NCBI GenBank assembly: GCA_051382295.1
Contig: JBBCAW010000031.1
Coordinates: 1-64,000, forward strand
Length of the DNA stretch: 64,000 nt
Direction of reading: 5' to 3'
Source of the DNA: Bdellovibrionota bacterium FG-1
GTDB taxonomy: Bacteria > Bdellovibrionota > UBA1018
The position numbers were made by a program, and so were the translations under genes. How positions within the stretch are numbered: position 1 is the stretch's first letter; every line of letters begins with the position of its first letter. A model generated the notes under the pieces. The model did no database searches. It saw only the letters and a program-made list of their open reading frames with translations, and was not told where the DNA came from. Shown here in pieces: positions 15,087 through 33,435 of this stretch.

Positions 15087-15093
15087 GGTCGGG

Positions 15094-15402: not shown

Positions 15403-15403
15403 A

Positions 15404-16410: not shown

Positions 16411-16413
16411 AAT

Positions 16414-17526: not shown

Positions 17527-17550
17527 GTTACTTATGTCTCCACCGCTCAA

Positions 17551-18960
17551 TTAAGCTTTACGATTCATCCACATCATCAAAATCTCAGAAAGCGCCTTGG
17601 TCCCCGGAGGCGGAAGAATGGCTCGCTTGAGTTTTTGCTGCCGGCCCTGAAAGTTAACGATCGTGCCATCCTTCTCAACAAAGGTGGTGCTAGGTAAAAC
17701 CGCGGCAAACCGCTGCGCCTCTGTTTTCATAAAGACACCTACGCCAACGGTTTTGATCCCCTTGAGATCCGGAAGTTGCGCACGCCCCCCCCGGAAAACC
17801 AAAACCGCGTCCGTGCCCGAAGGGAGTTGATCGAAACCTTTGTATCCCAGCGCCTCTAAGCCATGAAGGTTGGCGGTTTTACTCTTTCGCTTCAAAATCT
17901 TGTCCGCATCAGCATCGTCGTCAGTCGCTTTGACTCCGGATGTGCCAAAATGAAAGACCTGCGCGCTTGGAATATGCTTAGGAATAAACTCCAAAAGCAG
18001 ACGCGCCTCTTCATTGGTGAGATCCGACCCGACCAGTACGACCGGATTTCTCGAAACCGCCAAAGTTGCCTTGGCCAAGTCTAACGCCGCAAACCATTCT
18101 GCGTTTGCCAATCCATTGGATCCCGCAATTGTGGGCTCAACCAATCGCGCCGAGTTGTGAACATAATGGAAATTGAAACGCCCTTCGTCACAAATCCAAT
18201 ACTTGTTGACCTCCAGGTTTTCGCGGGCAATACAGCGATAGATGCGATTTCCCTCTTGCTGCGTTTCCATACTGCAGCCGCGCGAACAGCCTTCGCAGAT
18301 CGTGGGCGTCTTTTTAAGAAACCAAGATCGCTTCTTAAAACGAAAATCCTTGAGCGTTAAAGAGCCCGTGGGGCAAATGTCGGCATAATTTCCGGCGTAC
18401 TGAGTCTCCAGTTCACGCTCGTCGACCGTGGTAATTTCGGTGTTATTGCCTCGCCTCACCGCCACCATCTCACGAATACCCGCGATTTCCGCGCCAAACC
18501 GGATGCAACGGGTGCAGTGAATGCAACGATTCATGTTCTTCTTGATCACCGGCCCCATATCGAGGTCAACATAGGTGCGACGCTCCTCGGTGTAGCGCGA
18601 GTTAGCATCGCCATAGCCGTACGACTGATCCTGAAGATCACACTCTCCCGATTTATCGCAAATCGGACAATCCAAGGGGTGATTAATCAGCAAAAATTCC
18701 ATCACGGCTTTTTGATTTTGTTTGGCGCGCGCGGATTGAGTATGGACCACCATTCCTTCCGCCGCTGGCGTCGAGCAAGCGGTTTGGAGTTTAGGCATTT
18801 TATCTATTTCGACAGCGCACATGCGACACTGCGCCACCACGGTGAGGCCTGGATGATAGCAAAAATAAGGGATTTCAATCCCCGCCTTTTTGGCAACCTC
18901 AATCAGATTTTGACCTGGGGTAAACTCAACCTCACGGCCATCAATTATGCACTTGGGCAT
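17551..18960 (-). CDS. nuoG: NADH-quinone oxidoreductase subunit G (short form, 469 aa)
   Basis: IPYFCYHP...CRMC...AC, NHPLDCPICD..GEC.LQD, RCIHCTRCIRF...CPTG, CEGCSRGC...WICDEGR. Confidence 0.92.
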   Translation of the reverse strand: MPKCIIDGREVEFTPGQNLIEVAKKAGIEIPYFCYHPGLTVVAQCRMCAVEIDKMPKLQTACSTPAAEGMVVHTQSARAKQNQKAVMEFLLINHPLDCPICDKSGECDLQDQSYGYGDANSRYTEERRTYVDLDMGPVIKKNMNRCIHCTRCIRFGAEIAGIREMVAVRRGNNTEITTVDERELETQYAGNYADICPTGSLTLKDFRFKKRSWFLKKTPTICEGCSRGCSMETQQEGNRIYRCIARENLEVNKYWICDEGRFNFHYVHNSARLVEPTIAGSNGLANAEWFAALDLAKATLAVSRNPVVLVGSDLTNEEARLLLEFIPKHIPSAQVFHFGTSGVKATDDDADADKILKRKSKTANLHGLEALGYKGFDQLPSGTDAVLVFRGGRAQLPDLKGIKTVGVGVFMKTEAQRFAAVLPSTTFVEKDGTIVNFQGRQQKLKRAILPPPGTKALSEILMMWMNRKA

Positions 18961-20213
18961 TTTCCGCTCCTGATGTGGGCCTCAAAGTCAGTCCCAAATT
19001 TCTTAACAAAACTCATCACCGGGCCTGCGGCTGCGTCGCCGAGGGCGCAAAGAGTCTTGCCATTAATGTTATTAGCAATGTCGAGAAGCAAACTCAGATC
19101 CTTCTCCCGACCATGGCCATGCTCAATGCGATGGAGAATATCTTCCATCCAGCGGCAGCCCTCGCGACAGGGGGTGCACTGCCCACAGGACTCATGCTCG
19201 TAGAATTTCGTGATTCGAGTCAGCAACTTAACGATGCAATAATCTTCGCTCACCACTATCAATGCCGCTGAACCCATCATCGTACCGATCTTCATCAAGG
19301 GTTCGATATCGTAGACCGCATCGATTTCGTCCGCAGTCAACACCGGTGCCGAAGACCCGCCAGGAATGACCGCTTTGAGCTTTTTATCGCCCAAGATGCC
19401 ACCACCCAGATCATAAATAATTTGCCGAATGGTCATCGAACCCGCATTGATTTCATAAACACCAGGTTTTTTAACATGGCCGGAAATCGAAAGGAGGCGG
19501 GTTCCTCCTGATTTTTCAATTCTTCCAAGCTTAGAAAACCACTCGCCGCCCTTGTTCACAATGAACGGCACATTCGCTAAGGTCTCGACGTTATTGACTA
19601 CGGTAGGACCACCGAACGCCCCGGCCTGGGCCGGAAACGGTGGTTTTACTCGCGGCTCACCCCGCTTGCCTTCGAGAGAATTCAAAAGCGCAGTTTCTTC
19701 GCCACAGATATACGCACCCGCACCTCGATGAACCGTCAGGTCAAAGTTAAACCCTGAACCACCTATATTTTTACCCAACCAACCCGCCTTGTAGGCCTCG
19801 TCAATTGCGGCATTCAAAAGCTTCGCTTCACGAGTATATTCGCCACGAATATAGATGTAACCGACGTTCGCGCCGATCGCATAGCCCGCGATGACCATTC
19901 CCTCGATCAAAAGATGAGGAATGTATCGCATAATATCGCGATCCTTAAACGTCCCCGGCTCCGATTCGTCGGCATTGCAAACGACATACTTGGGTTTGCT
20001 CGCCTGTTTAGGGATAAATCCCCACTTCATGCCCATGGGAAAACCAGCGCCTCCACGGCCCCGGACATTTGACTTTTTGACCTCATTAATGAGATCATCT
20101 TGAGTCATCCCGAAGGCTTTTTTGGCCGCCGTATATCCATCCATCTTGCTGAGATAGTAAGCCAGCGGACGGGCTTCTTCGTTAAAGTGCTGGATAAAAA
20201 GAGTTTCGCTCAT
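18945..20213 (-). CDS. nuoF: NADH-quinone oxidoreductase subunit F
   Basis: RGRGGAGFP.G.KW, NADESEPGTFKDR, GAGAYICGEETAL, ESCGQCTPCREG. Confidence 0.97.
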   Translation of the reverse strand: MSETLFIQHFNEEARPLAYYLSKMDGYTAAKKAFGMTQDDLINEVKKSNVRGRGGAGFPMGMKWGFIPKQASKPKYVVCNADESEPGTFKDRDIMRYIPHLLIEGMVIAGYAIGANVGYIYIRGEYTREAKLLNAAIDEAYKAGWLGKNIGGSGFNFDLTVHRGAGAYICGEETALLNSLEGKRGEPRVKPPFPAQAGAFGGPTVVNNVETLANVPFIVNKGGEWFSKLGRIEKSGGTRLLSISGHVKKPGVYEINAGSMTIRQIIYDLGGGILGDKKLKAVIPGGSSAPVLTADEIDAVYDIEPLMKIGTMMGSAALIVVSEDYCIVKLLTRITKFYEHESCGQCTPCREGCRWMEDILHRIEHGHGREKDLSLLLDIANNINGKTLCALGDAAAGPVMSFVKKFGTDFEAHIRSGKCPSA

Positions 20214-20230
20214 CTTTATGCCCTCGAGCC

Positions 20231-20707
20231 TTATTTCAGACTGTCCATCAGCTTATCCAGCTTCTGGGCATCCAGGTTTTCGTGATAATCATCGTTCAAC
20301 ATCATGGCCGGCGCCGTTCCGCAAGCGCCGAGACACTCTTCTTCCATGAGGGTGAATTTTTTATCCCCGGTGGTTTCACCACATCGAATATTGAGCTTCT
20401 TTTCAACATGCTCAACAAGTTCGTCGGCGCCTCGCAAACAACAGGCGACGTTGGTGCAGATTTTAAGGTGGTACTTTCCGACGGGCTTTAAATTATACAT
20501 GGTATAAAACGATGCCACCTCGCGCACTTGAGCGGGATGAATACCAATATAAGCCCCGATTTCCTCCATCACCGCAGGAGAAAGCCAGCTGGTTTCTTCC
20601 TGCGCCTGGTGGAGCGCTGGCAACAACAGCGCTACCCGACTGGGATAGCGCGGCACCAACTTGTCCATCTCTTGGTAAAATTTCTGGGAAAGAATTTTGT
20701 TTGCCAT
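20231..20707 (-). CDS. nuoE: NADH-quinone oxidoreductase subunit E
   Basis: VASFYTMY, CTNVAC.L.G, ECLGACGTAP. Start placed at ATG 20707 (MANK). Confidence 0.95.
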   Translation of the reverse strand: MANKILSQKFYQEMDKLVPRYPSRVALLLPALHQAQEETSWLSPAVMEEIGAYIGIHPAQVREVASFYTMYNLKPVGKYHLKICTNVACCLRGADELVEHVEKKLNIRCGETTGDKKFTLMEEECLGACGTAPAMMLNDDYHENLDAQKLDKLMDSLK

Positions 20708-20728
20708 AATCCCGTTCTCTCGCTCCAA

Positions 20729-21976
20729 TTAGCGGTCCAGCTCTCCCGCGATCACATTGATGCTGCCTAGCGCACCCACAAGGTCCGCGATCTTATACCC
20801 TGCGCACATGGTACTCAGACCTTGGTAATGATAAACGCTGGGACCACGAATTCTCATTCGATGCGCCTGCGGACCGCCCTTGCTCACAATATAAAACCCA
20901 AGTTCACCATTCACCGCCTCGATCGCCGAATACACTTCGCCCGCAGGCACGGAAAAGCCCGTCATGAAAAACTTAAAGTGATGAATCAAGCCTTCCATCG
21001 TATTATGAACGACATCCTTGTCTGGAATCCGAACCCGCTTGTCCTCAGACCAAATCGGTCCCTTTTTGATCCGGTCCGCGCATTGTGTGATAATATTGAG
21101 CGACTGCCGAATTTCTTCCATCCGTACTGCATAGCGATCAAAAACGTCGCCCGTCTGCGCAATCGGCACATCAAACTCAACCTCTTTATAATAGAGATAG
21201 GGCTGGTCTCGACGCAAATCGATGTCCACTCCAGCGGCGCGCGCGTTGGGTCCGGAATAACTATATTGTATGCATTGTTCTTTGTTAAAAGGCGTCACAC
21301 CGACGGTTCGTTGCTTCCAAATCTTATTGTTCGTCAACAGCCGGTCCATTTCGTCCAAGGTCTCACGAGTCTTCTTGACCCAAACCTTGACTTCTTTTTC
21401 CCATCCGTCAGGCGCATCATACGCCAACCCACCAATACGAGTGTATGACGTGGTTAAGCGCGCCCCCGTCAGCTTTTCAATCAATGTATAAGCCTCTTCA
21501 CGCTGATGAAACCCATACAAGAAGTAAGAAAACGCACCGAGGTCGACGGCATTGATCCCGACACAAATCAGATGGTCGGTGACTCGCGCGAGCTCCATGC
21601 AGATCATGCGAATCCAATTGGCCCGCTCTGGCACTTCAACGCCCATGAGTTTCTCGACCGCCAACGCATACCCGACATTGTTCATGAGCGAAGAGCAATA
21701 ATTCAGACGATCCGTGTAAACGATGAAATTGTGGTAGGTCCGATTTTCACCCAGCTTTTCTTTTGCGCGATGGGTATAGCCGAACTCACAGTAGCTTTTC
21801 TCAATCGTTTCACCGTTCAACTTGGCCACCATGCGCAAAGCCCCGTGCATCGCGGGGTGCGTTGGACCAATATTGACGATCATGCGAGAGTCACCCCAAA
21901 GATCGTCTGGATCGTGCTCGACCGAAATCCCGGAGGGGTATTGGGTATTCAGCTTGTTTTTCGTTTGTTCTGCCAT
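20729..21976 (-). CDS. nuoD: NADH-quinone oxidoreductase subunit D
   Basis: NIGPTHPAMHGALR, GYTHRAKEK, DRLNY, VDLGA, GELDR. Quinone-site His, Tyr and Asp are present. Confidence 0.96.
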   Translation of the reverse strand: MAEQTKNKLNTQYPSGISVEHDPDDLWGDSRMIVNIGPTHPAMHGALRMVAKLNGETIEKSYCEFGYTHRAKEKLGENRTYHNFIVYTDRLNYCSSLMNNVGYALAVEKLMGVEVPERANWIRMICMELARVTDHLICVGINAVDLGAFSYFLYGFHQREEAYTLIEKLTGARLTTSYTRIGGLAYDAPDGWEKEVKVWVKKTRETLDEMDRLLTNNKIWKQRTVGVTPFNKEQCIQYSYSGPNARAAGVDIDLRRDQPYLYYKEVEFDVPIAQTGDVFDRYAVRMEEIRQSLNIITQCADRIKKGPIWSEDKRVRIPDKDVVHNTMEGLIHHFKFFMTGFSVPAGEVYSAIEAVNGELGFYIVSKGGPQAHRMRIRGPSVYHYQGLSTMCAGYKIADLVGALGSINVIAGELDR

Positions 21977-22010
21977 AGTTGCTCTACCCCTTGTCGCTTC
22001 TCAATGCCGA

Positions 22011-22577
22011 CTAATCCAAAAGTTCCGGCCGAATCGGCATTGGCTCTGTAAACACCTGATAGCCACGGAGTGGATAATCCTTTCGCAGGGGGTGTCCCAC
22101 CCAGCGTTCATCCATCAAAATACGACGAAGATCGGGGTGCCCTTCAAAACGGACACCGTACATGTCCCAAACCTCGCGCTCCGCCCAATTCGCCGCCGGC
22201 CAAAGCAGCGTGGCGGTTGGAACCGATTCGCCATCTTTTGCTCGTGCTTTTACGCGAATCCGACTTTTTTTAGAAAGTGAAAACAGATTGTAAACCACCT
22301 CAAACCGCGGCTCAACTTCTTCATCGGTTGCCGTAAGGTCCGCCAAAAACTGGTAATCACAAGAAGGCTCTTGCTTGAGGAACTGAAGCACCTGAATGAG
22401 CTGCTCCCTTTTTACATAAATAATAGGAACATCGGTGGGAGACTCCACAGGGCTGCGAACCTCTTCGATTGCCGCACCAAATCGCGCCTTCACGGCCTCG
22501 ATTTGCCCTTTCCAAAGCTCACCAAACTTACCCTGCCAGTCGCCGCCATTATTAGGAATCGGAGTTCTGATATCCAT
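22011..22577 (-). CDS. nuoC: NADH-quinone oxidoreductase subunit C
   Basis: RFEVVYNL.S, ANWAEREVWDMYGVRFEGHPDLRRILM...W.GHPLRKDYP. Confidence 0.96.
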   Translation of the reverse strand: MDIRTPIPNNGGDWQGKFGELWKGQIEAVKARFGAAIEEVRSPVESPTDVPIIYVKREQLIQVLQFLKQEPSCDYQFLADLTATDEEVEPRFEVVYNLFSLSKKSRIRVKARAKDGESVPTATLLWPAANWAEREVWDMYGVRFEGHPDLRRILMDERWVGHPLRKDYPLRGYQVFTEPMPIRPELLD

Positions 22578-22588
22578 TTCTTTTTCCT

Positions 22589-23098
22589 TTATGGGTGAGC
22601 GTTAGCCGCACTGAAGTCCGCGATCCGGCGTTGTGAGTGCGTCTCGCCACGCTGAATTTTTTCCCGCAGCAACAAAAGCGCATGCAAAACGCCCTCTGGG
22701 CTCGGCGGGCAGCCGGGGATATAAACATCCACCGGGATCATCGTGTCCACCCCTTGAAGAACACTATACACGTTGAAGATTCCGCCTGATGACGCGCATG
22801 CGCCCATCGAAATCACCCACTTGGGATCTGCAATCTGGTCATAAACTGTTTTTAAAACCGGCGCCATTTTCAGATTGATGATTCCCGCCACAATCAATAA
22901 ATCGGCCTGCCGCGGTGAAAACCGAAGAGCCTCCGCACCGAACCGCGCAATATCGTAATCAGAGGCAAAAGCGGCCATCATCTCGATTCCGCAACAACTG
23001 GTTCCAAAGGGGAGGGGCCAAAGCGAGTTTTTTCGGCCCCAATTAATCATGGCATCGAGGCGAGTGGTGAGAAAGCCAACCTGTCCGTCTTTATTCAT
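22589..23098 (-). CDS. nuoB: NADH-quinone oxidoreductase subunit B
   Basis: [34 protein letters not shown]. Confidence 0.97.
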
Positions 23099-23105
23099 TT
23101 AATAT

Positions 23106-23465
23106 TTACTCCCATTCGAGCGCGCCTTTTCGGAGAACGTAAAAATATCCCACCAACAAGATGGCCACAAACGCCCCCATTTCCCACAAAATAAAGGAGT
23201 TGATGCTCAGGTATTTCTTAAAAACTACCGCCCAGGGGAAAAAGAAAACCGCCTCGACGTCGAACAAGAGAAAAAGAATCGCCACCAAATAAAAACGAAC
23301 GGAAAAACGATGTCGCGCATTTCCGATCGGCGGCATTCCACACTCAAACGGAGAGTTCTTTCGCCGAGAAGGCATCTTCGGCCCAATCAAGTAAGAGACT
23401 GTCAAAATGGCAGCCCCTACAAAAAGCCCCAGCGCCAGCAGAATCAATACAGGTATGTAGCCCAT
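23106..23465 (-). CDS. nuoA: NADH-quinone oxidoreductase subunit A
   Basis: PFECG, RFYLVAILFLLFDVE...FFPW, KGALEW. Confidence 0.96.
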   Translation of the reverse strand: MGYIPVLILLALGLFVGAAILTVSYLIGPKMPSRRKNSPFECGMPPIGNARHRFSVRFYLVAILFLLFDVEAVFFFPWAVVFKKYLSINSFILWEMGAFVAILLVGYFYVLRKGALEWE

Positions 23466-23497
23466 TTTTAATATATAACGTCAGGCGCAACTGCCCG

Positions 23498-24985
23498 CTA
23501 CCACAAAATAAAGCCTAGTGATTTACCCGCCCAATTTAAAACAAACTCCGCAAAAACACCCAGCATGACCACCGGCACCATTACGCCAACCAAAAAAGCC
23601 TGCCTCCCCCGACTCGGAGTAATGAATTTACCGTAAGACCCCGGTCGCAAGGACCCCGCCCTGAAATCGCCAACCAGATAAAACGCCATGCGCGCCACAG
23701 CCGCCGTAGAAAGGGTCATGGCTGCAATCGCCACTACGGCAAGAACATGCCAATGATGCCGAACCACCGCACCAATCAAAGCAAACTTACCCACAAAACC
23801 CGGCGTAGGGGGCAGTCCAATCAAGCAAAGCAGGAAGAGAACAAGAAAGCCGCACTCTGGAACCGCCCTAGAAAGCATTCCGCGCAAACCCTCGAGCGAA
23901 TCCGAACCTAATTCGTCGAAAAAAAAGGCCAATACAAAGAAACTGCCCATCAAGGCGAAAACCTCGACGACGAGGTTATAAAGGAGGGCGGCCACCCCCA
24001 CCTGATCCAAAACCAAAACACCCATTAAGAGAAACCCGGTCTGAGCAACGACCAGACACCCCACCATCCGCTTGGCCGCAGTTTGCCGCACCGCAAGAAG
24101 AGAGCCGATCAGCATCGTCATCCCAGAGACGAGAGCCACAATACGGGTCCAATCGAGCGCACCTAGAATTTGCCACTGCCCATCGAGATCGCTGCGCTGC
24201 GCAAACATTACAATCAAAAATCGAAGTGTAACGGCAACGCCCGCCGCGCGCACACCAAACGATAAAAACCCACTGGAGGAGGTAGGGGCCCCTTCTAAAA
24301 CATCAGGGGTCCAAAGATACATCGGAAAGGCGCTCAGCTGAAAGCTCAGCGCTAAAAAAATTAACATAAACACCACCAACATCGAGCTGTGTGTCAGCGG
24401 ATGGGTCACTAACGCTTTGTGGATTTCATAAATATTAAATCCATGCGTGAGCGCAAATAGCACCGCGAGCCCATACAAAAAAAGCGCGGCCGCAACAGAA
24501 CTAAAAACCATGTATTTAACAGCGGCCTCAGCTGAATAAATCGATCTTTTGCCAAAACCCGCCAAAAAATACCCAACAATATTCATGAACTGCAGGCAAA
24601 GAAAGGCCAACAATAAGTCCGCCGCCCCAGCGGCGAGAGACATCGCCAACGTTGAGGCCAAAACTAAAGCAAAGAACTCCGTCTGCCGCTCTTTAGCGAT
24701 TTCGCGACTTTGCATCGTCGTCCAAAGTGTCAGGCTCGCCAAAATGATAAAAAGTACTTTAAAAAAGAGCGAAAGCCCATCAATCGCAAGGGCCCCATCA
24801 AAAATCTGAGTCGCGCTATACTGATAGGTGATCAAGGTCTGCACAAACGCCGCCGCCAGTCCGACTTGCGCGGTACCGGCAACTAATCGCGTTCGCTCTC
24901 CGTGATAGCTGATCTCGGCCGCCACAATAAAGGCCAAAGTCAGCGCCAAGATAACTTCAGGCAAAATCAGGACGAATTCTCTCAC
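23498..24985 (-). CDS. nuoN: Divergent NuoN-like subunit (second complex I-like operon)
   Basis: EAAVKYM, LW.PDVLEGAP, KRM, GLPPTPGFVGKF. Key Glu/Lys replaced (see findings). Confidence 0.9.
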   Translation of the reverse strand: MREFVLILPEVILALTLAFIVAAEISYHGERTRLVAGTAQVGLAAAFVQTLITYQYSATQIFDGALAIDGLSLFFKVLFIILASLTLWTTMQSREIAKERQTEFFALVLASTLAMSLAAGAADLLLAFLCLQFMNIVGYFLAGFGKRSIYSAEAAVKYMVFSSVAAALFLYGLAVLFALTHGFNIYEIHKALVTHPLTHSSMLVVFMLIFLALSFQLSAFPMYLWTPDVLEGAPTSSSGFLSFGVRAAGVAVTLRFLIVMFAQRSDLDGQWQILGALDWTRIVALVSGMTMLIGSLLAVRQTAAKRMVGCLVVAQTGFLLMGVLVLDQVGVAALLYNLVVEVFALMGSFFVLAFFFDELGSDSLEGLRGMLSRAVPECGFLVLFLLCLIGLPPTPGFVGKFALIGAVVRHHWHVLAVVAIAAMTLSTAAVARMAFYLVGDFRAGSLRPGSYGKFITPSRGRQAFLVGVMVPVVMLGVFAEFVLNWAGKSLGFILW

Positions 24986-24992
24986 GCTCGCC

Positions 24993-26516
24993 TCATTTCA
25001 CGGCCGAAAGCAGAGTCAGTACGGTGGGCCGCACCAACTCCAACAAAGGCTTGGGATACAAGCCAAACAAAAGTAAACCGACCACGAGCGGCATCAAGTA
25101 TGCTCGTTCGCGAAGACTGAGATCAGAAAACTCTTCCACGGCCGCTCCAATTTTTCCAAAAAAGACACATCGATACATTGTAAATAAGCAATAATTGGCC
25201 ATCAAAAACGCCGCCCCCGTCGGGAAGATCGTCATTGGATGCACCGAATAGCTTCCAATCGTCAGAAGGGCGCCTCCCACAAAACCACCTAAGCCAGGAA
25301 AACCCAACAAGGACGCGATAAACACCCCGGCCACAAGCGCTAACGAAGGGGACCGCGCAACAATGCCACCCAGAGCCCTTTCACCCTGATCCGTTAAAAA
25401 CATCGAATGCCCGAGTCGCTCAGTAATGAGGCCCGCGAAGACACCAAAACCCGCCAAGCCGAGACCCAACACAAGTTGCTCGTAGACGGCGCCAACGACA
25501 CCCGCAGGACTCAGTGATCCAAAGCCGATGAGAATAAAACCCACGCCGCTCATCGTGATATAGGCCAAAAGAAGATTCAGGCGTCTTTGGGCAACAGCGC
25601 AAATGCCCCCCATCAGCAGGTTAACAACACCAATAACCACAACCCAATGAGCGGACGCAACCATCGTTTCAGGAAAGAGCGAATAACAGAGACGCACAAA
25701 GATGTACGCCGCAACCGGGACCGTTACCGCTGAAAGCGCGACAAAAACAGAGGGCGATGCCTCCTCCGCCGTTTGCGAAAACCAACCGTGAAGTGGCCAA
25801 ATCGGGGCGCGCAACGCCAAGCCCACGCAAGTCAGGCCAAACGCGACCCCCGGCACGGAAAGCTCGTGCCCCAGCATCTCAAATGTTTTTCCGTTGAGAC
25901 GCCCCCCTGCCAGAGCGTGAATTGAAAAGCCATGGGGGTCGATCGCGTAATAAACCAAAATGAGCATCGCGAACAACAGCGCATTGCCCAGTGAGGCGGC
26001 CACCATATATCTGAAGCCCGCGGTTTCGCGCTTTTCGCCACCCCAAATGCCAATCAAAAAATAAAAGGGCAAGGCCGACAGCGACCAAAAGAAAAAAAGC
26101 AAAAAAAGATCCTGCGCACAGACGGCGCCAAAAAAGGCCGTTTGAAGGACCAAGAAAAGCCCGTGCACACCTCTGACTCCAGTTTTTTGATTCCACTCAT
26201 AAGCAATTAAAACCGGAAAAATGAGCGCCACCAAGAGCACCATGATCGCATTGAGACCGTCTACCCCCATTTCATAACTAATGGCATAAGAGCCGACCCA
26301 AGGGAGCGTTTCGGTCGCTTGCAGCTCCGGCGTGCTTCCTTGCATGGAAATCACCAGCGCTAAAGCGCAAACACTCGAACCCACACTCGCCGCCAGCGCG
26401 GTCCAGCGCCCCACGGCGGCAGAATCCGACCAACCCCTGACTTTGGGCAAAAGAGCCTGAAAAAGCGCCCCCACCAGAGGCAGAAAAACCATCAATGTGA
26501 TTAAATGATGAACCAC
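24993..26516 (-). CDS. nuoM: Divergent NuoM-like subunit (second operon)
   Basis: W......ISYEMGVDGL, PFYFLIGIWGG, PIWPLHGW, PG.GGFVG, DLSLRE, GLYPKPL. Confidence 0.88.
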   Translation of the reverse strand: MVHHLITLMVFLPLVGALFQALLPKVRGWSDSAAVGRWTALAASVGSSVCALALVISMQGSTPELQATETLPWVGSYAISYEMGVDGLNAIMVLLVALIFPVLIAYEWNQKTGVRGVHGLFLVLQTAFFGAVCAQDLFLLFFFWSLSALPFYFLIGIWGGEKRETAGFRYMVAASLGNALLFAMLILVYYAIDPHGFSIHALAGGRLNGKTFEMLGHELSVPGVAFGLTCVGLALRAPIWPLHGWFSQTAEEASPSVFVALSAVTVPVAAYIFVRLCYSLFPETMVASAHWVVVIGVVNLLMGGICAVAQRRLNLLLAYITMSGVGFILIGFGSLSPAGVVGAVYEQLVLGLGLAGFGVFAGLITERLGHSMFLTDQGERALGGIVARSPSLALVAGVFIASLLGFPGLGGFVGGALLTIGSYSVHPMTIFPTGAAFLMANYCLFTMYRCVFFGKIGAAVEEFSDLSLRERAYLMPLVVGLLLFGLYPKPLLELVRPTVLTLLSAVK

Positions 26517-26527
26517 GCGTCAGCCCC

Positions 26528-28495
26528 CTAAGTTCGGATAAAGTGAGCGAGAATTGCTATTCCACTGCCCACCGCAAAAAACAGATACCATTGTACATCG
26601 CCGTTCTGAATGACCTGCAAAACCTTGGAAGGAACCTCGACCCAACGACGAAGAGCCCCTCCCACCCAAAAAGAAAACCGAGAATCCCCCAGGGCGATGG
26701 CCGCCGCCCCTCGGCGAAGAGCCGTCGTCAACCCATGAGGCAACCAAAATCCCCAAATTTCTCTATCCACGAGCCAGGTGCTAGCCCGGCCCACCCTGGA
26801 CAAAACTTCGGCAACCTTCTCAAAAAAAGGATCTACGCCGTACCCGGACGCCACAAACGCAGAAAAACGGGGAAGGGATCGACTGATCGCCGGCCACAAA
26901 TGAGGGCGCTTTCCAGCAGTCAAATACGCCGCGACGCTCGCAATCAGTAAAACCCCCCAGTAAAGCGCGCTGGCGGTACCGTAACTTCCTTCCTCTCCCC
27001 AGTTATTGGCAGCTGCACCAAAAAACTGCGTCAAAAAAGATGTCAAAAAACAATCTGGGTTACCCAAAACCACACCGCCCGTGGCTGTCCCGGTCCAGAC
27101 CACACCCAACCCCAAAACAATCAAAACAAAGGGAGCAAGTACGGCATTCCAAGAAACATCGGCGGCCTGTTTCGGGGGCTTAGCCGTCCATTTAGCGGGA
27201 GCCTTGACGGAGATCGCCATCCACGCGACCTTCCAGCCCAAAAAAGCGAAAAGAAAAAAGACCAAAATAGACGCCGTTGCGAGCGCTGGTTGTGCAATGG
27301 CAAACAGGAACCAATGAACATTTCCACCGGCAGTAACAAATCCCAAAAACCCCGTGCCCATGGCCGCCGCTAAACCACATCCCACTCTAGACCAAACTTG
27401 AATGTTGGCCGTTTTTTCTCTGTCCGCCGCCAAAGCGATTTCATCGAGGTTAGAGCCAAAGCCCGCGAGCGCACTAGCGGCCAGTCCAGCACCTAAAAAC
27501 ATACAAAACGCCGAAGAAGGTCCGTTAAAAGCCAAGAAGGCCACCGCGAGAGAAAAAGCAGAAGAAAGCCAGGCACTGAGACTCAAGCGCCACTGATTAC
27601 GAAAAACTCCCGAAGCCGCTGATAAAAAAGCTGACGCCAACCCCACCCATCCAAAAAACGGGAAAATCCCCGCCTCCCGAAAACGAGGTTCAAGACGAAG
27701 AAGAAGCGCTAAACTGGCCCACGCCGGAAACACCTGCGCGAGAACAATTCGAGCGAACCCAGGCGTGATCGAGTCGTGGGTTCCCCATCCTAAAAAAGGA
27801 AAAGGCTGCAATTGCACCATCGCACCCAGAAAAACGAACGAAGCCCCCATAAAGTCAGTGGTTTCACTCCAAGAAGACGCGCCGACCATACTCAGTGGCG
27901 CTCTCGCTCCCGCTAAAACACATAGCCCCACCAACGACAGGATAAAACCCCAAGAACGCTCCCATCCGAAACGGGTGGCAAGCGCGGCCTCTGATGAAAG
28001 ACCCCAATACGACCCCAAAGCTAAAAATCCGCCGACAATGGTCAATACCGACCCCGCCAAGGCCAACCACGGCGTAAGCCCAAACCAGGCAAACGCCACC
28101 CCCGCGCACGAAACCGCTAGCGCCGCATACAACCGCGCCGCTCGAGTGACACGAACCGTTCCGCTGGTCACAAGAAGCAAACAAGCCGAAACCAAAACCG
28201 TCAAAACGGCTACCGCCAACCCCACCGCATCACGGACCATACCAACGGTAATGGCTCCCTCTTCAGCCCGAGGCCAAATCCAACCCCTCAGCCAGGTTTG
28301 CGGCTGAAAAGAATCTTCGCTGAGTGCGATCCATCCTATTCCCGCATCGATCATAAGGGCCGCCAGACCCAAACCAACCAACCAATCCCCTTGACGCGGC
28401 AGCTTACGCCCCCAGAGCATCAAGACAATTCCACCCACCAGCAAAACCACCAACCCTGACAACAACAGTGCAGGAGAAGACGTAACGCCGTTCAT
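26528..28495 (-). CDS. nuoL: Highly divergent NuoL-like subunit (second operon)
   Basis: 655 aa, very hydrophobic, positioned between nuoK and nuoM. C-terminal amphipathic region GYGVDPFFE...LVD...IQNGDVQWY matches NuoL KWYVDELYE...IQTGSIQIY. Confidence 0.75.
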   Translation of the reverse strand: MNGVTSSPALLLSGLVVLLVGGIVLMLWGRKLPRQGDWLVGLGLAALMIDAGIGWIALSEDSFQPQTWLRGWIWPRAEEGAITVGMVRDAVGLAVAVLTVLVSACLLLVTSGTVRVTRAARLYAALAVSCAGVAFAWFGLTPWLALAGSVLTIVGGFLALGSYWGLSSEAALATRFGWERSWGFILSLVGLCVLAGARAPLSMVGASSWSETTDFMGASFVFLGAMVQLQPFPFLGWGTHDSITPGFARIVLAQVFPAWASLALLLRLEPRFREAGIFPFFGWVGLASAFLSAASGVFRNQWRLSLSAWLSSAFSLAVAFLAFNGPSSAFCMFLGAGLAASALAGFGSNLDEIALAADREKTANIQVWSRVGCGLAAAMGTGFLGFVTAGGNVHWFLFAIAQPALATASILVFFLFAFLGWKVAWMAISVKAPAKWTAKPPKQAADVSWNAVLAPFVLIVLGLGVVWTGTATGGVVLGNPDCFLTSFLTQFFGAAANNWGEEGSYGTASALYWGVLLIASVAAYLTAGKRPHLWPAISRSLPRFSAFVASGYGVDPFFEKVAEVLSRVGRASTWLVDREIWGFWLPHGLTTALRRGAAAIALGDSRFSFWVGGALRRWVEVPSKVLQVIQNGDVQWYLFFAVGSGIAILAHFIRT

Positions 28496-28782
28496 TGCTT
28501 GAGTGACCTCAATTCGTCGATATTTGTGCGGGTTTTTAGATAAAAAACACGGATAGCCAGCGCGTAGCCACCCGCCAACTGGGCAACGCCGGAAAGAACA
28601 ATAAAGAGCCCAAAAAGGTGGCCCTCAACCCGCGCGCCCGACATCACGCCCGCAAGGACAAACATCATTGCCGAACCCAAAACCAAAAGCTGAATGCCGA
28701 TCATAATGCCCAACAAGGTTCGCCGAGAAATTATGCAAACCAGACCAAGAGCACCCATCATCCCGGAGACAAGCATCATCAT
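28492..28782 (-). CDS. nuoK: Divergent NuoK-like subunit (second operon)
   Basis: Three TM helices; RRTLLGIMIGIQLL, GH.F..FI, T..IDELRSLK. ATGA couplings on both sides. Confidence 0.85.
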   Translation of the reverse strand: MMMLVSGMMGALGLVCIISRRTLLGIMIGIQLLVLGSAMMFVLAGVMSGARVEGHLFGLFIVLSGVAQLAGGYALAIRVFYLKTRTNIDELRSLKQ

Positions 28783-29294
28783 GGCTGTGACTCCTTTTTT
28801 GAACTTTGCTCTGGGCGAGCAATCACGCCACCGCCAATCAAAACGAGAAAGAGTGTCAGCGCCAAAACCTCTAACGAAAGCAAATGCTGGCTGGTCATTG
28901 TTTTTCCGAGCGCCGCCACATCGGTGCCGTCAACCGCTAGGCCAATTCCGTTTTCCGGAATTTGCCCCGCTCCAAACCAAATCACGGTCGAAAAAGCGAA
29001 CCCCAAAAGTACCGCCATCACCGTTTTAAATATTCGAGATCCCCCCGTCTTCTCCCAGTCGCTCGAGCCATATTCGCCAAACATCACCGAGAAGAAGACA
29101 AAAGAAATAACCACTAAAGTCGAAACAATCCATTGAATGACGGCAAGAAGCTCCGCTCCAAGCGTGAGGTACAAGGCGCCCACTCCGAGGCCGGCAATCC
29201 ACAACGAAAGGATTGCTCGTCGAATATCCCCAACAAAAGCGGCAAAAGCACCCGCCCCGAGGGTGATTACCGCAAAGATCCAACAAATCGTCAC
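28779..29294 (-). CDS. nuoJ: Divergent NuoJ-like subunit (second operon)
   Basis: Y..LGAELLAVIQ.IV, LG.......LLSLEV.AL.L...LIG..VIAR. GTG 29294 overlaps the nuoI2 stop. Confidence 0.85.
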   Translation of the reverse strand: MTICWIFAVITLGAGAFAAFVGDIRRAILSLWIAGLGVGALYLTLGAELLAVIQWIVSTLVVISFVFFSVMFGEYGSSDWEKTGGSRIFKTVMAVLLGFAFSTVIWFGAGQIPENGIGLAVDGTDVAALGKTMTSQHLLSLEVLALTLFLVLIGGGVIARPEQSSKKESQP

Positions 29295-29827
29295 AACAGC
29301 CCCCCTTCGCCGTCTTCCGTTGCGCGTCTCATTTTTGCCCAATGCGCCCGCTGTGGCTCAGTAATATGGCCACGCCCAAAATGACTCACCATCGCAGACA
29401 ACCGATAAACGGCGCCCTCATATTGCCGGGTATGCATAAGCGACTGTGGCTGACAAGCCTCAACACAAAGGCCACAAAAAATACACTTCGAAAAATCGAT
29501 ATCAAACGTGGACACCCAAACTTTAGCCGAATCCGCTCCAGGCTCTGTTTCGACCGAAAGGCAGTCCGTGGGACAAACGATTTCACACTCTTTACACCCG
29601 GTGCATCGCTCTATGTCATTATAAAGAAGCCCTCTTGACCGGGAAGGAAGGTCCTCGGGTGCCCGGGATGAAATGGGATCCGGGTACTGCTCTGTCACCT
29701 CTTTTCGAAATTCGCCAGCGCTCAACAAATACGGGATCGAGGTCAAACACGATCCAATGACCGACCGGGCCCCCCACAAGGCATCTCGAAAATAGTGTCG
29801 AAGTGTTGAAAAAACCGATTCAATCAC
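29291..29827 (-). CDS. nuoI: NuoI-like 2x[4Fe-4S] subunit (second operon)
   Basis: VTEQYPD, RSRG, CTGCKECEIVCP, FDIDFSKCIFCGLCVEACQP. GTG 29827 follows GGAG and overlaps the nuoH2 stop. Confidence 0.9.
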   Translation of the reverse strand: MIESVFSTLRHYFRDALWGARSVIGSCLTSIPYLLSAGEFRKEVTEQYPDPISSRAPEDLPSRSRGLLYNDIERCTGCKECEIVCPTDCLSVETEPGADSAKVWVSTFDIDFSKCIFCGLCVEACQPQSLMHTRQYEGAVYRLSAMVSHFGRGHITEPQRAHWAKMRRATEDGEGGLL

Positions 29828-30909
29828 AGCGCCCTCCATCCCGCCCAAAAGCCCACGCCAATCAGCGCAGCGAGCGAAAAAGGACTCAGGACCTTCCACG
29901 CAAAATCGGTGACCTGGTCCGTCCGCGTCCGAGGGTTAACTCGAGCGACCCAAACCACAAGAAGCATTAATAGAAAGGTCTTGATCAATAAAACGACCAA
30001 TTCCAAAAACTGCAAAACACCAAAAGCTTCGGCATCCTTGAGCGCGCTAAAAAGACTAACTGGAAGCTGCCAGCCCCCCAAAAACAAGACGACCGAAATC
30101 ACCGACCACAAAAAGAAACCATAGAACCGACTCAAGTTAAATAACGTCAGCCTTTTTCCATGCAAATAGGAAGAAACACCGCCTTGAATATCTGGATGCG
30201 AAAGCGCGGCATCCATCGGAGGAATCGCCAAAAGAATGAGTCCAGCAACAACAAACACGACCATCGCGATCAACTCGAACGGATTGGTCGTAGCCGCCCA
30301 AGTAAACGGAGAGGCCCCCTGAGAACCCGCCAAAACACTCCACTTAAAGCTCCCGGCTCTAACCCCAGCGCAAAGTAACGCCACCAACGCCGGAAAGGCT
30401 CCTGCCAAAGCCTGCGCGGCTACCCGTACGCCGCCCAACCACCCTGGCACCGAACCTTGGCTGAAGCCTAAAAGCATCGTACCTAAAGCCAAAACAAGCG
30501 CCGCCCAAAACGGCCAAAAGGCACTCATATCCGTATCCACTAACAACACGAGGGACCCCAGCGGCAATACGGCAACCGTTGAAAAAAGGGCCATGGTATG
30601 AACGCCCACCCAAAGAGCTTCGCGCCAGGTCCACGCTTGGTTGCCCTCTTTTTGGAGAAGCTTAAGCAGATCAGCAAGCGGTTGGAGCGCCCCGGCCGGC
30701 CCAGCCCGATTCGGGCCCACTCGGGCTTGAAAATCAGCGCCCAACTTGCGATCCAGAAAAGCCATCACGGTGGCACTAGGAAAAATGACCAAGAGATAGA
30801 TGAAGACTAGGCCACAGCCCGCAATCAACCATTGAGGGACTCCGGGCGGAAGTCGCAATAGATGCGCCCAAATGGTTGGCCAATTCATGTCCGTGCCCAA
30901 TGCGTTCAT
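29824..30909 (-). CDS. nuoH: Divergent NuoH-like subunit (second operon)
   Basis: DRKL.A.FQARVGPNRAGP.G.LQPLAD.LKLL.KE, LFLGGW, PR.RTDQ..DFAWK. Confidence 0.9.
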   Translation of the reverse strand: MNALGTDMNWPTIWAHLLRLPPGVPQWLIAGCGLVFIYLLVIFPSATVMAFLDRKLGADFQARVGPNRAGPAGALQPLADLLKLLQKEGNQAWTWREALWVGVHTMALFSTVAVLPLGSLVLLVDTDMSAFWPFWAALVLALGTMLLGFSQGSVPGWLGGVRVAAQALAGAFPALVALLCAGVRAGSFKWSVLAGSQGASPFTWAATTNPFELIAMVVFVVAGLILLAIPPMDAALSHPDIQGGVSSYLHGKRLTLFNLSRFYGFFLWSVISVVLFLGGWQLPVSLFSALKDAEAFGVLQFLELVVLLIKTFLLMLLVVWVARVNPRTRTDQVTDFAWKVLSPFSLAALIGVGFWAGWRAL

Positions 30910-32039
30910 CGATCCGCCTCCGCAACGCCAAGATCTAGGCTTGCCAGCAATACCGGCAGGTCTTCAATCCGAATCCCGGGCAACAAAGAAGGAACCATCA
31001 ACAAATGGGCCGAAGATGGCGTCCTAAACTGCACTCTCGCCGGTCGGGCACTACCATCGGAAACCACATGACAACCGAGCAGGCCTCGCGAACTCTCGAT
31101 TCGTGAGTAACCCTCACCTTCGGGCACGGCAAAGTCTCTATCGATCCTTCCGATAGCAAATTCGCCGGGCGGAATTTTTTCAGCCGCTTGCCGCAGAATC
31201 ACCACGCTCTGAGCGATTTCACGAAGATGAACCAAAAAGCGGGTGTGCGCCCCGCTGCCCGATGCTTGACTTTCGACCGGCACTTCAAAATCCCATTTTG
31301 AATATCCACTATAAGGATGCGCCCGGCGGATATCCATTCCCACGCCTGAGGCGCGTGCGCTAGGGCCGGTGACCCCCCACTTGGAAATTTGCTCGGGAGA
31401 CAAAACACCCACCTTCATCGTTCGCAACAAAAAGGCGTGATTATAAGTAAAAAGATCATTGTATTCTTTCAGGCGAACCTGGGCCAGATCACAAACCTCC
31501 AACACTCTCTCAATAAAACCTTCGGTCACATCCGCCCTCACGCCACCGAATCTCAAAAAATTCAGCGAAAACCGCGCGCCTGACAAAAGCTCAAACAAAT
31601 CCAATACCCGCTCACGATCCCGCAAAACATAATGAAGCATGGTCTCGGCACCTACAGCTCGAGCCATTTGAACCATAAAGCCCATATGTGAGGAAATTCG
31701 AGTAAGCTCGGACAAAATCACGCGAATCACTTGTGCTCGTTCAGGCACTTCGATTTCAGATATCTCTTCGACCGCCAGACAAAGCGCTAATTCACCAAAA
31801 GCCGCCCCTTCGGGATCCAAATGATCAGCATAGGGAATCGACGCCTGCCAACTATGGCGTTCAAAAGCTTTTTCGAGTCCGCGGTGCAAATACCCACAGC
31901 CCACCGTACCCGAAACGACAATCTCGCCATCAAGCTGAAGACTCAGCTTGATGGGTCCCGGCAGAGCACCGTGATAGGGCCCGATTTCCCAGAGCGTCAG
32001 GTCTGTAACAAGACATTCGGCTTCAGGGCTTTGATTCAT
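30906..32039 (-). CDS. nuoD: Divergent NuoD-like subunit (second operon)
   Basis: IGP.H, L.LDGE.V, GYLHRGLEK, PERA..IRVI..EL.RI.SH, G..GP.ARASG...DIR, ESSRG.LG, EADR. No NiFe CxxC motifs. Confidence 0.9.
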   Translation of the reverse strand: MNQSPEAECLVTDLTLWEIGPYHGALPGPIKLSLQLDGEIVVSGTVGCGYLHRGLEKAFERHSWQASIPYADHLDPEGAAFGELALCLAVEEISEIEVPERAQVIRVILSELTRISSHMGFMVQMARAVGAETMLHYVLRDRERVLDLFELLSGARFSLNFLRFGGVRADVTEGFIERVLEVCDLAQVRLKEYNDLFTYNHAFLLRTMKVGVLSPEQISKWGVTGPSARASGVGMDIRRAHPYSGYSKWDFEVPVESQASGSGAHTRFLVHLREIAQSVVILRQAAEKIPPGEFAIGRIDRDFAVPEGEGYSRIESSRGLLGCHVVSDGSARPARVQFRTPSSAHLLMVPSLLPGIRIEDLPVLLASLDLGVAEADR

Positions 32040-32532
32040 GAGAAATCCCTAAATATTCCGGTGGAAAAACATATTTTTTACGCAAAGGAAAACCCACCCA
32101 CCCCTGTGGAAGGCGCTGGCTTGGCAAATACACGGGCTGTCCGCTAGCGGACAAAAACCTAATCCCAAAAAGTTCGCCGGCCTCAACCTCAAAGGCGCCG
32201 GCCATCGCCCAGAGCTCGGCCACTGAAAAAAGTTCAGCCGGGACGGTCGGACCAGGCGGCACCGCTGAAACCCGCAAGGTCACAGTCAAGGCGCTGCTCG
32301 TTGAACGTAGAAAATAGGAGGCAACCAGTGTTTCTTCGACTTCGATCACGGAGAGATTTTCAAGCCAATCTAGAGCCACCCTGTTTTCATTTTTAAGAAA
32401 TGCTGCCACCGCCACCAGTAGGCGCCCCTCAATCCAAAAAGAGGGCGAAGTGGTGCGCCCGAAACACCCGTTTTCAAGCACGGCCCCAGGAACTGCTTGT
32501 TTAAGCTTTTTGAGAAGTTCGGTCGTGTCCAC
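32023..32532 (-). CDS. nuoC: Divergent NuoC-like subunit (second operon)
   Basis: SV..LW..A..FE.E..ELFGIRF, GW.GFPLRK.Y. GTG 32532 follows AGGA. Confidence 0.87.
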   Translation of the reverse strand: MDTTELLKKLKQAVPGAVLENGCFGRTTSPSFWIEGRLLVAVAAFLKNENRVALDWLENLSVIEVEETLVASYFLRSTSSALTVTLRVSAVPPGPTVPAELFSVAELWAMAGAFEVEAGELFGIRFLSASGQPVYLPSQRLPQGWVGFPLRKKYVFPPEYLGISHESKP

Positions 32533-32986
32533 GGATTTTTTCCTGTAAGGCGATAAGCCCATTCATGATGGCTTCAGGCCGCGGGGGACACCCTGGCACA
32601 TAGACATCCACTGGTAAAAGACGATCGACCCCGGGCATGACAGAATAACTGAACTCCGGTGCGAAAGGACCGCCACAGTTCGCGCACGAACCGATCGCAA
32701 GAACATATTTCGGTGCAAGCATCGAATCATAGACCGCGCGCAACGGAATGGCGGCCTGATACGAAACCACTCCAGACACAATGAGTAAATCCGCTTGCCG
32801 GGGATCTGCCTGCGGAAGGCAGCCAAACCGCTCAAGATCGTAACGACAGCCCATCGTATTTAAAACCTCGTCTGCACAACACCCAGAGCCCGTGGAAATG
32901 TACCAAAGCGAGTTGGCGCGAGCCCATTGAAGAACTTTTCCAATCGTCGAAACATAAAATGAGGGTTTTTCCGTCGCTGGGCTCAC
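32501..32986 (-). CDS. nuoB: NuoB-like [4Fe-4S] subunit (second operon)
   Basis: WAR.NSLW...[50 protein letters not shown]. Confidence 0.93.
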   Translation of the reverse strand: MSPATEKPSFYVSTIGKVLQWARANSLWYISTGSGCCADEVLNTMGCRYDLERFGCLPQADPRQADLLIVSGVVSYQAAIPLRAVYDSMLAPKYVLAIGSCANCGGPFAPEFSYSVMPGVDRLLPVDVYVPGCPPRPEAIMNGLIALQEKIRGHDRTSQKA

Positions 32987-33387
32987 GTTTTTTTATTTTC
33001 TCCTTTTTCCTCACGAAAACTCGTCAGCCAACTCAGATCCCCTTTGCGAACCGAGTAAAGAAGACCCAGGGCTGCAAAACCCGCGATTGACACGATCGCG
33101 ACCAAGCCGCGCAATAGCCCTTCGTGATCCGTTCCGGGCTGCAATATCCCCACACAGGGAACCAAAGCCAACATGAGTGCGATCAAAACCAGTGCTGCAT
33201 TTGCGGCGAGAAAAAATCGGGCATTTATTTTCTGACCCAAGACCGTTCGATTCGCTTCTACGGCTTCAGTCTTCGCACCGTTTTTGGGCGAAACCAAATA
33301 GGAAACCAAAGCTAAAGCGGCAGGAATGCCGAGAGCTAGGAATGCAGACAAAAAAACGATGTAGTAGACATCCCAGCCGCTGGGCAT
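32983..33387 (-). CDS. nuoA: Divergent NuoA-like subunit (second operon)
   Basis: Three TM helices; VSYLVSPK, RFFLAA, Y..RKGDLSW align with NuoA VSYLIGPK, RFYLVA, RKGALEW. First gene of the operon. Confidence 0.82.
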   Translation of the reverse strand: MPSGWDVYYIVFLSAFLALGIPAALALVSYLVSPKNGAKTEAVEANRTVLGQKINARFFLAANAALVLIALMLALVPCVGILQPGTDHEGLLRGLVAIVSIAGFAALGLLYSVRKGDLSWLTSFREEKGENKKT

Positions 33388-33406
33388 TGCGCCTTACCTC
33401 GCGAAA

Positions 33407-33435
33407 AGACTACGCAAGTCGAAATGGAGTGTCAA
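33407..33435 (-). promoter_or_regulatory. Sigma70-type promoter of the second (divergent) nuo operon
   Basis: Minus strand TTGACA (33435-33430), 17 nt spacer, TAGTCT (33412-33407), then GAGG/AAGG before ATG 33387. Confidence 0.75.

Follow-up and report, generated by a model that had tools for sequence, protein, structure and literature searches.

Eleven genes for complex I subunits that have lost nearly all residues associated with quinone binding and proton pumping, and that have retained the ligands of their iron–sulfur (Fe-S) clusters, form an operon directly upstream of a canonical nuo operon in Bdellovibrionota bacterium FG-1. The operon, called degenerate in what follows and its genes marked with a prime (nuoA' to nuoN'), lies in the DNA analysed here, a window of 64,000 nucleotides corresponding to positions 1 to 64,000 of contig JBBCAW010000031.1 (assembly GCA_051382295.1). 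The alignments indicate that canonical pumping is very unlikely, because all three coupling loops and the charges of NuoL are lost; electron transfer remains possible, since the Fe-S ligands are kept. Tentatively, and from sequence comparison, the operon may be viewed as encoding an uncoupled, membrane-anchored Fe-S electron relay, which would receive electrons from a soluble donor and would probably reduce quinone without pumping. The system is best placed in the complex I superfamily as a variant, with a real chance that it represents a new kind of system.

Gene content and layout

The degenerate operon occupies positions 23498-33387 of the minus strand and comprises 11 co-directional open reading frames (ORFs) without internal stops, in the order nuoA-B-C-D-H-I-J-K-L-M-N. 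Eight of its ten junctions overlap, the remaining two measuring 11 and 7 bp, and 32 bp separate the nuoN' stop from the canonical nuoA start. This layout had been described in a first-pass annotation of the window, and re-reading confirmed it. The features are listed below in the direction of transcription (aa, amino acids; TM, transmembrane helix); substitutions were read from a MAFFT alignment to the nuo products of E. coli K-12, whose residue numbers are used.

33407..33435, minus strand: candidate sigma70 promoter of the degenerate operon, with -35 TTGACA, a 17-nt spacer and -10 TAGTCT, 20 nt upstream of the nuoA' ATG
32983..33387, minus strand: nuoA', 134 aa; D79I, E81L; degenerate TM1-2 coupling loop
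32501..32986, minus strand: nuoB', 161 aa; all four N2 ligands present (C36, C37, C101, C133); Q-loop R87Q
32023..32562, minus strand: nuoC', up to 179 aa; missing from the operon in several relatives
30906..32039, minus strand: nuoD', 377 aa; H224P, Y273P, D325A; the N2 neighbour R250 retained; family-specific His136 at E. coli F333
29824..30909, minus strand: nuoH', 361 aa; E157A, E216L, E218H, E228Y, E241R; R46 and D63 retained
29291..29827, minus strand: nuoI', 178 aa, probable GTG start; N6a/N6b Cys 8/8; family-specific motifs YPDPxSSR, WV and FGRG and a family-specific C-terminal helix
28779..29294, minus strand: nuoJ', 171 aa, probable GTG start; Y59S
28492..28782, minus strand: nuoK', 96 aa; E36Q, E72Q
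26528..28495, minus strand: nuoL', 655 aa; NuoL fold with lateral helix (residues 554-630) and last TM; zero axis residues (E144V, K229Q, H254A, K342A, K399A)
24993..26516, minus strand: nuoM', 507 aa; E144S, K234R, H248A, K265P, H322G, H348L, E407G
23498..24985, minus strand: nuoN', 495 aa; E133Q, K217Q, K247R, Y333E; K395 retained
23466..23497, minus strand: 32-bp spacer with a -10-like TATATA 6 nt upstream of the canonical nuoA ATG, a candidate leaderless-type promoter whose -35 region overlaps the nuoN' stop
10031..23465, minus strand: canonical nuoA-N, 14 genes with 34/34 diagnostic residues; neighbour and control

Ten of the 11 window proteins were assigned by Pfam to complex I subunit families (NuoA' only at E=0.002, under the cut-off), and no match to NuoL' was found in Pfam or NCBIfam. 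NuoL' is identified as NuoL by the alignment and by its fold, as its AlphaFold model (pLDDT, the predicted local distance difference test, 88.9) has NdhF/NuoL chains as best structural matches, with TM-scores of ~0.7 at 13-17% identity. The best PDB matches of NuoD' were NdhH (6hum) and Nqo4 (2fug). For NuoI', the model (pLDDT 76.9) and the PDB search contributed nothing more than a C-terminal helix. In the neighbouring operon, the canonical NuoG (17551-18960) has 469 aa, and its copies in the class have 460-491 aa, versus ~910 aa for the E. coli ORF.

Residues lost and residues kept

The 34 diagnostic positions of the quinone site and proton axis were chosen on the basis of mutagenesis and structural work. 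Most of them are named in the available passages of PMC10212512, PMC11627005 and PMC13073174. The window copy keeps three (NuoD H220, NuoH D213 and NuoN K395), whereas the canonical neighbour keeps all 34, so the loss of quinone, E-channel and antiporter residues claimed in the first-pass annotation was borne out. The same contrast holds across relatives, in that 33 degenerate copies together keep 127 of 1097 positions and 27 canonical copies keep 912 of 915 (gaps excluded). At the quinone site, NuoD H224 and D325 are kept in 0/33 copies and Y273 in 6/33. In the E-channel the counts are 0/33 for NuoH E157, 1/33 for E216 and 2/33 for E218, 0/30 each for NuoA D79 and E81, 0/33 and 1/33 for NuoK E36 and E72, and 0/32 for NuoJ Y59. 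The antiporter feature has been described as GluTM5, LysTM7, Lys/HisTM8 and Lys/GluTM12 in each of NuoL, NuoM and NuoN (PMC10212512, in the text available); in the degenerate copies only NuoN K395 is kept (K in 20/33, R in 8/33), NuoL K229, K342 and K399 being found in 0/32 and NuoM E144 in 1/33. The coupling loops, namely the NuoA loop, the NuoD beta1-2 loop and the NuoH TM5-6 loop, are all three degenerate, and charges of the cavity such as NuoH R209 and E216 are replaced by hydrophobic residues.

The Fe-S ligands have the opposite fate. As the first-pass annotation stated, all 12 are present in the window, four Cys in NuoB' and eight in NuoI'. The NuoI' Cys occur in 33/33 rows at seven positions and 32/33 at the eighth, in 6/6 further divergent copies and in 120/120 listed homologs (of 483 found), while those of NuoB' are kept in 29-31 of 31 rows and also in 6/6 further divergent copies. 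Among the same 120 of the 483 homologs found, motifs of the YPDxxSxR type occur in 119, WV in 119 and those of the FGRG type in 114. NuoD' R250, next to N2, is R or K in 33/33, and pairwise identity is highest for B' (0.50), I' (0.46) and D' (0.44) and falls to 0.20 for L'. The near invariance of the 12 Cys, of R250 and of the NuoI' motifs thus identifies the Fe-S head as the conserved core.

The residue loss is, as judged from these alignments, targeted. NuoD' retains 80% of its invariant D/E/K/H overall but not the His224/Asp325 pair, and NuoM' retains 77% of invariant G/P/W versus 30% of D/E/K/H. Some charges remain or are newly gained in NuoN' and NuoM'. In NuoN', 20/20 rows with a basic residue at 247 also have an acid at position 305 or 333, against 1/13 rows that lack the basic residue (the rows include kin and are not independent), a covariation that would suit a neutralising salt bridge in the protein interior. 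Compensating charges able to rebuild the proton axis, which the first-pass annotation had named as a reason to abandon its view, did not emerge: the residual NuoN' and NuoM' charges form no continuous axis and vanish in three families (f10, f13 and f28), whose six copies align at one NuoM K234, one NuoN K217 and one NuoN Y333 among the axis residues and keep all 12 Cys. The charge of one NuoI' loop, the only one compared, is -2.0, versus -2.3 in the canonical protein and ~0 in the stand-alone BCDI type, and thus does not appear to point to a basic ferredoxin-binding patch.

Distribution and selection

A NuoI' profile search of 79 genomes of the class (UBA1018/Bdellonasia, Bdellovibrionota), each of at least 90% completeness, found the protein in 76, including 41/41 others of the window's own family. 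The best database matches were named Bdellovibrionota, Oligoflexia, 'Bacteriovoracaceae bacterium UBA1018' and 'Bdellovibrionota bacterium FG-2', the last being assigned to GTDB class UBA1018, with the proposed name Bdellonasia, in the part of PMC13200544 available. The first match in the ESM Atlas was a Bdellovibrionota cluster, and a search of plasmids gave NuoD matches of only 37-39% among the five listed. The operon adjoins canonical nuoA in 51 of 52 other genomes read at the locus; the first 32 of these were selected by the degenerate gene and the other 20 by canonical nuoB, and among the latter it adjoins canonical nuoA in 19 (two loci ended by a contig edge). At the G188 locus the operon was not found, and a presumed mfd-like gene stands upstream of the whole canonical nuo; it was likewise not found in G159. 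The neighbourhoods contained no conserved partner gene, the recurrent neighbours being genes that we take to be mfd-like and SurA-like.

Erosion is graded, from intact orthologs through half-eroded forms in families f2 and f7, with Y273 and much of NuoM kept, to fully neutral and shrunken ones. Genomes G036 and G038 keep 12/34 and 10/34 diagnostic positions, including Y273 and NuoM K265/H322/H348/E407. In f10 nuoC' is gone and D', H', L' and M' are shortened; nuoC' has been lost repeatedly across relatives, and nuoD' is split in G035. Families f13 and f28 (L037, L038 and L177-L180) have an extra antiporter-like ORF of 447-475 aa between L' and M', which aligns with none of the axis residues.

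Selection was assessed from Nei-Gojobori counts of the ratio of nonsynonymous to synonymous substitution (dN/dS) in 11 pairs, 6 of which were saturated at dN 0.14-0.50; in the 5 measurable pairs dN/dS was 0.03-0.23. In f10, the most eroded family, two close pairs gave 0.032 and 0.039, where the canonical operon gave 0.034 and 0.032. For a third pair the values were 0.197 in the degenerate and 0.108 in the canonical operon, and two nearly saturated pairs gave 0.195 and 0.231. Pairwise identity is 0.20-0.50 for the degenerate operon versus 0.52-0.75 for the canonical one, that is, the former evolves faster. The first-pass annotation had set beforehand that absent orthologs and a dN/dS near 1 would speak for a relaxed duplicate; orthologs were found in 76/79 genomes and dN/dS lies well below 1. 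Its view of a selected non-pumping machine instead of decay is upheld by class-wide occurrence, purifying selection and targeted loss, and simple decay was rejected on the low dN/dS, where measurable, and the class-wide NuoI'. The degenerate set has thus lost catalytic residues while its fold is kept under purifying selection, the combination that characterises a selected pseudoenzyme.

Evolutionary origin

The first-pass annotation regarded the degenerate set as a paralogous copy of the neighbouring nuo. The trees contradict this, showing descent from a separate, intact complex of other Bdellovibrionota. Three genomes of other classes (G042, G129 and G107) carry two intact membrane-arm clusters in tandem, and this intact upstream type, found also in G047 and G045, is the sister of the degenerate family in the H+M+N tree (29 of 37 rows used, 8 dropped) with a Shimodaira–Hasegawa-like approximate likelihood ratio (SH-aLRT) support of 99. 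A recent duplication of the neighbouring nuo was rejected by the approximately unbiased (AU) test, with p=4.8e-9 for H+M+N and 7.8e-8 for B+D+I. In the B+D+I tree the sister is the intact ABCDHIJKLMN cluster of G008 (L080), with support 95, and the single-gene NuoD tree left the sister group unresolved. The degenerate and canonical NuoD subtrees have similar branching orders (in a quick tree with long branches), which fits vertical descent. The intact ortholog at the same locus and the trees together indicate that the class received both complexes by inheritance and then neutralised the one lying upstream. The intact upstream type has all diagnostic membrane residues except for one E218D, and adjoins an mfd-like gene in G042 and G047. 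In a sample of 150 genomes of the phylum, 18 second NuoD copies were fetched from other classes, all in intact stand-alone nuoBCDI clusters, and NuoD His/Tyr/Asp were kept in 18/18.

In other Bdellovibrionota (loci L021-L036, L039, L040, L202-L206, L210 and L214) the intact ortholog is split into nuoAHJKLMN and a stand-alone nuoBCDI. Genome G047 has one NuoH and two NuoD matches, which suggests two peripheral arms on one common membrane arm. In G000 a third 11-subunit nuo cluster, largely intact, is found at L078 (G000:C4, ~104500-114500), with a 2-oxoacid:ferredoxin oxidoreductase gene as neighbour (C4:116019-116657). Position K234 of its NuoM is occupied by Leu, a substitution shared by the related copies of G003 and G006. 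Locus L213 of G041, which contains the sole NuoH match of that genome, carries what we take to be a hydrogenase-4/Ehr-like cluster (L-like, N-like, J, K, B, C, D, H, I).

Promoters

The consensus promoter claimed for the degenerate operon was in part substantiated: it is conserved in relatives and its -35 is TTGACA, but its -10, TAGTCT, fits the consensus at only 3/6 positions, which is why it is absent from the consensus-scan list. The element TTGACA-17-TAnnnT, with a conserved spacer of consensus TTTCAACTTCAG, was found at the operon head in 34 distinct sequences, window included; the instances were gathered by the motif itself among 101 loci plus the window, many from the same genomes, and one internal match was discarded. 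The spacer may be an operator. When genome G000 was scanned with the promoter matrix, the operon head scored best (32.2, runner-up 19.8), with no convincing second site of the spacer motif. Before the canonical nuoA, a TATA-like hexamer stands 6-8 nt upstream of the ATG and ~20 nt past the N' stop in many of 32 spacers (by eye, unscored), suggesting that canonical nuo has a leaderless promoter of its own, separate from the degenerate operon. Co-transcription of both operons is therefore not implied.

A second, apparently independent degenerate operon

A contig that is deltaproteobacterial by the name attached to its NuoM carries another degenerate operon (L217:3203-12956, Ga0156096_109), with ten open genes, A'B'C D'H'(no I)J K L M N, 6 bp upstream of canonical nuoA-B-CD-E-F-G-H. 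Its NuoB' has lost all four Cys, its NuoD' has H224R, Y273P and D325I, and nuoI is missing; NuoK E36 and part of the NuoN axis are still present. The operon appears to have degenerated independently. In the tree, the L217 NuoM falls with the intact clade of the upstream type and not with the degenerate family of class UBA1018. The best 120 NuoD matches include no close relative that is degenerate, so L217 may be a relic. Several axis residues are also replaced in some NuoM-like proteins outside the degenerate family (P0054, P0056, P0063, P0085, P0099, P0119 and P0148).

Proposed mechanism and rival explanations

The proposed relay, which is the favoured reading although with less than an even chance, would be an assembled, L-shaped, non-pumping derivative of the ancestral 11-subunit complex I. 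Electrons would be supplied to N6a/N6b of NuoI' by a soluble donor, which could be ferredoxin, flavodoxin or some enzyme that docks on the NuoI' surface specific to the family. N2 in NuoB' would receive them next and, within a remodelled pocket of greater hydrophobicity, deliver them to a lipophilic acceptor that is most likely quinone. With coupling loops and charged axis gone, no protons would move and turnover would be unrestrained by the proton-motive force, so that the complex could act as a redox overflow valve, its membrane arm serving as anchor and scaffold. Donor, acceptor and physiological role are guesses, and we infer expression, assembly and cluster occupancy. The first-pass claim of lost quinone-binding residues holds for H224, Y273 and D325, but their loss is no proof against quinone reduction: according to the available text of PMC11627005, decyl-Q reductase activity falls only to ~61% in the E. 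coli D325A variant, and in Yarrowia the His/Tyr variants can still use short-chain quinones, indicating that quinone reduction can survive the loss of His, Tyr and Asp. Chemistry at the proximal cluster without H38/Y87 has a precedent in the membrane-bound sulfane reductase (MBS) (PMC7684303, in the passages available). Genome G000 encodes ferredoxin-linked 2-oxoacid oxidoreductases (4 POR_N matches) and gave no NDH-2 match. The idea of the operon as a general stand-in for missing NDH-2 was rejected, as 41/79 class genomes have an NDH-2-like match.

Several points weigh against the relay. These NDH-2-like genes nearly all occur alongside the degenerate operon, and L'M'N', with ~1,600 residues superfluous to a relay, is kept everywhere examined. 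In E. coli NuoN, K247A and K395A leave ~10-17% NADH oxidase (PMC13073174, as far as available); since axis mutants of a coupled complex I also block electron transfer, release from coupling is an assumption. No donor or acceptor gene is linked to the operon, and the profile search gave no match to the futalosine-pathway proteins MqnA/D. The clusters may be retained for folding or sensing and not for turnover, and L217, with ten genes open in the absence of NuoB Cys and nuoI, indicates that redox chemistry is not indispensable for such a shell to persist. When canonical NuoG (residues 1-260) was docked to NuoI', the score was 0.00, and the result was not used as evidence.

The main rival, conceivable though less likely than not, is that the whole complex is a pseudoenzyme, that is, a non-catalytic scaffold, assembly aid or regulator that would shape supercomplexes or swap or sequester subunits of the real complex I, with clusters that are structural or work as a redox switch. 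The full architecture, down to the NuoL lateral helix and last TM, would suit such a role, as would the better retention of G/P/W than of charged residues in NuoM', the salt-bridge-like covariation among the related NuoN' rows, the adjacency to canonical nuoA in genomes selected by canonical nuoB, and the L217 shell, which lacks Fe-S ligands and likewise lies directly upstream of canonical nuo. However, adjacency is inherited, as the intact ortholog already precedes a second nuo in G042, G129 and G107; L217 stands as a singleton, and each of the two operons has a promoter candidate of its own. Moreover, the canonical operon is whole in G188, without the degenerate one at its locus, and G053, G060 and G119 have only one NuoH, of canonical type, which means that complex I assembles without the degenerate set. 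A broader formulation, for which we would give somewhat less than an even chance, is that a whole respiratory complex became a ~400-kDa pseudo-machine that took on another role (redox-switched scaffolding or regulation of the true complex I, or Fe-S catalysis on a non-quinone substrate), that this conversion occurred more than once, and that L217 represents its cluster-free end state.

New chemistry or sensing at N2, in a pocket reshaped to accept a substrate or signal other than quinone (sulfur species, O2 or NO, or a redox-active small molecule) and uncoupled in an otherwise MBS-like manner, seems improbable. It would explain the family-conserved residues aligned with the quinone cavity (NuoD' Pro at Y273 in 23/33 and His at F333 in 27/33, NuoH' Arg at E241 in 25/33, NuoB' Gln at R87 in 22/31), would share with MBS the lack of H38/Y87, and would suit an operon with its own conserved promoter spacer. 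These substitutions are not common to f2, f7, f13 and f28, though, so no single new site exists class-wide; four N2 Cys are kept instead of the three of the site-differentiated MBS cluster, and no signalling gene is linked. Still more doubtful, and indeed very improbable, is a remodelled ion or solute transporter built on the residual charges. NuoN K395 is K or R in 28/33 copies, K247 is R in 18/33 and NuoM K234 is R in 31/33, and K395 and K247 are the NuoN lysines that matter in E. coli, where E133 and K217 are tolerated (PMC13073174, in the part available). Yet NuoK E36, NuoH E157, NuoA D79/E81 and NuoL K229/K342/K399 are kept in none of the 30-33 rows compared, K395 and K247 are unaligned in f10, f13 and f28 (where alignment is weak), and the available text of PMC10212512 proposes NuoL as the sole exit and regards all modules as necessary. 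That the operon is a slowly decaying relic of an ancestral second complex I is largely refuted and hardly credible: faster evolution, repeated loss of nuoC', short L' and M' in f10, the split nuoD' in G035 and the failure to find the operon in G188 and G159 would fit decay, but against it stand a low dN/dS where measurable, the presence of NuoI' nearly throughout the class, reading frames that stay open in two orders, a conserved promoter and targeted loss.

Other features of the window

On the same strand, 30 bp past canonical nuoN, starts a repeat-rich protein of 1013 aa (6960-10001; by eye tetratricopeptide repeat-like), followed by a gene that we take to be serS-like. The contig end (133-3141) carries transposase-like ORFs, presumably of the IS66 type. 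An AT-rich gap at 58500-59200 (43.5% GC in 58001-60000) is a possible replication origin; no long ORF fit for dnaA lies beside it, and the run downstream presumably corresponds to dnaN-recF-gyrB-like genes.

Comparison with known systems

No description of such a degenerate system was found in the literature, subscription journals and supplements being outside the scope. In the text available, PMC4758237 and PMC13147790 report split or extra nuo clusters in Bdellovibrionota, the latter mentioning a nuoAHJKLMN cluster, and neither mentions lost residues; PMC4453560 lists two-isozyme genomes without naming Bdellovibrio, and PMC13200544 does not mention nuo genes. In the passages compared, complex I, NDH-1, membrane-bound hydrogenase (MBH), MBS and Mrp all retain a charged membrane axis that couples redox reactions to ions. 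Removal of axis and coupling loops throughout a class, with the machine kept, thus implies an undescribed function of the complex I chassis and a job other than energy conservation. The natural series from intact through half-eroded and neutral to shrunken forms offers a test of quinone reduction without an axis and of which elements enforce coupling. Since annotation labels the genes as ordinary nuo or as hypothetical, a metabolic reconstruction would include a second proton pump where there is probably none.

With 11-subunit complexes I lacking NuoEFG, such as Fpo and cyanobacterial NDH-1 (Moparthi and Hagerhall 2011, PMC3144371, as available), the degenerate operon shares the 11 genes and their order, the absence of N-module genes, the folds and the N2/N6a/N6b ligands. 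Unlike it, the intact clusters examined here (four 'third' copies) keep 128/136 diagnostic residues, versus 127/1097, and the degenerate operon departs from them at quinone site, E-channel and antiporter residues alike. The intact upstream Bdellovibrionota complex is its sister and has the same position before a second nuo in G042, G129 and G107, but retains nearly all diagnostic residues. The extra ORF of f13 and f28 gives a gene order that we take to be like that of 2M complex I, without the charges; 2M complexes are proposed to pump more.

MBS from Pyrococcus resembles the degenerate complex in having a complex I-like head without H38/Y87 and chemistry at the proximal cluster. It differs in that it pumps and has a charged axis, a three-Cys cluster and the three coupling loops that it shares with complex I and MBH (PMC7684303, in the passages available), whereas here loops and axis, whether compared with MBS or with MBH, are lost, and NuoB' has a tandem Cys-Cys plus two Cys in place of a site-differentiated cluster. 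The NiFe ligands of MBH have no counterpart, as no Cys is found among invariant or nearly invariant NuoD' columns. NDH-2 would be similar, if the complex works as a relay, in passing electrons to quinone without pumping, but is an unrelated single flavoprotein that co-occurs with the operon in about half of the class. The degenerate complex, built like an 11-subunit complex I, would at most work like NDH-2 or an uncoupled MBS.

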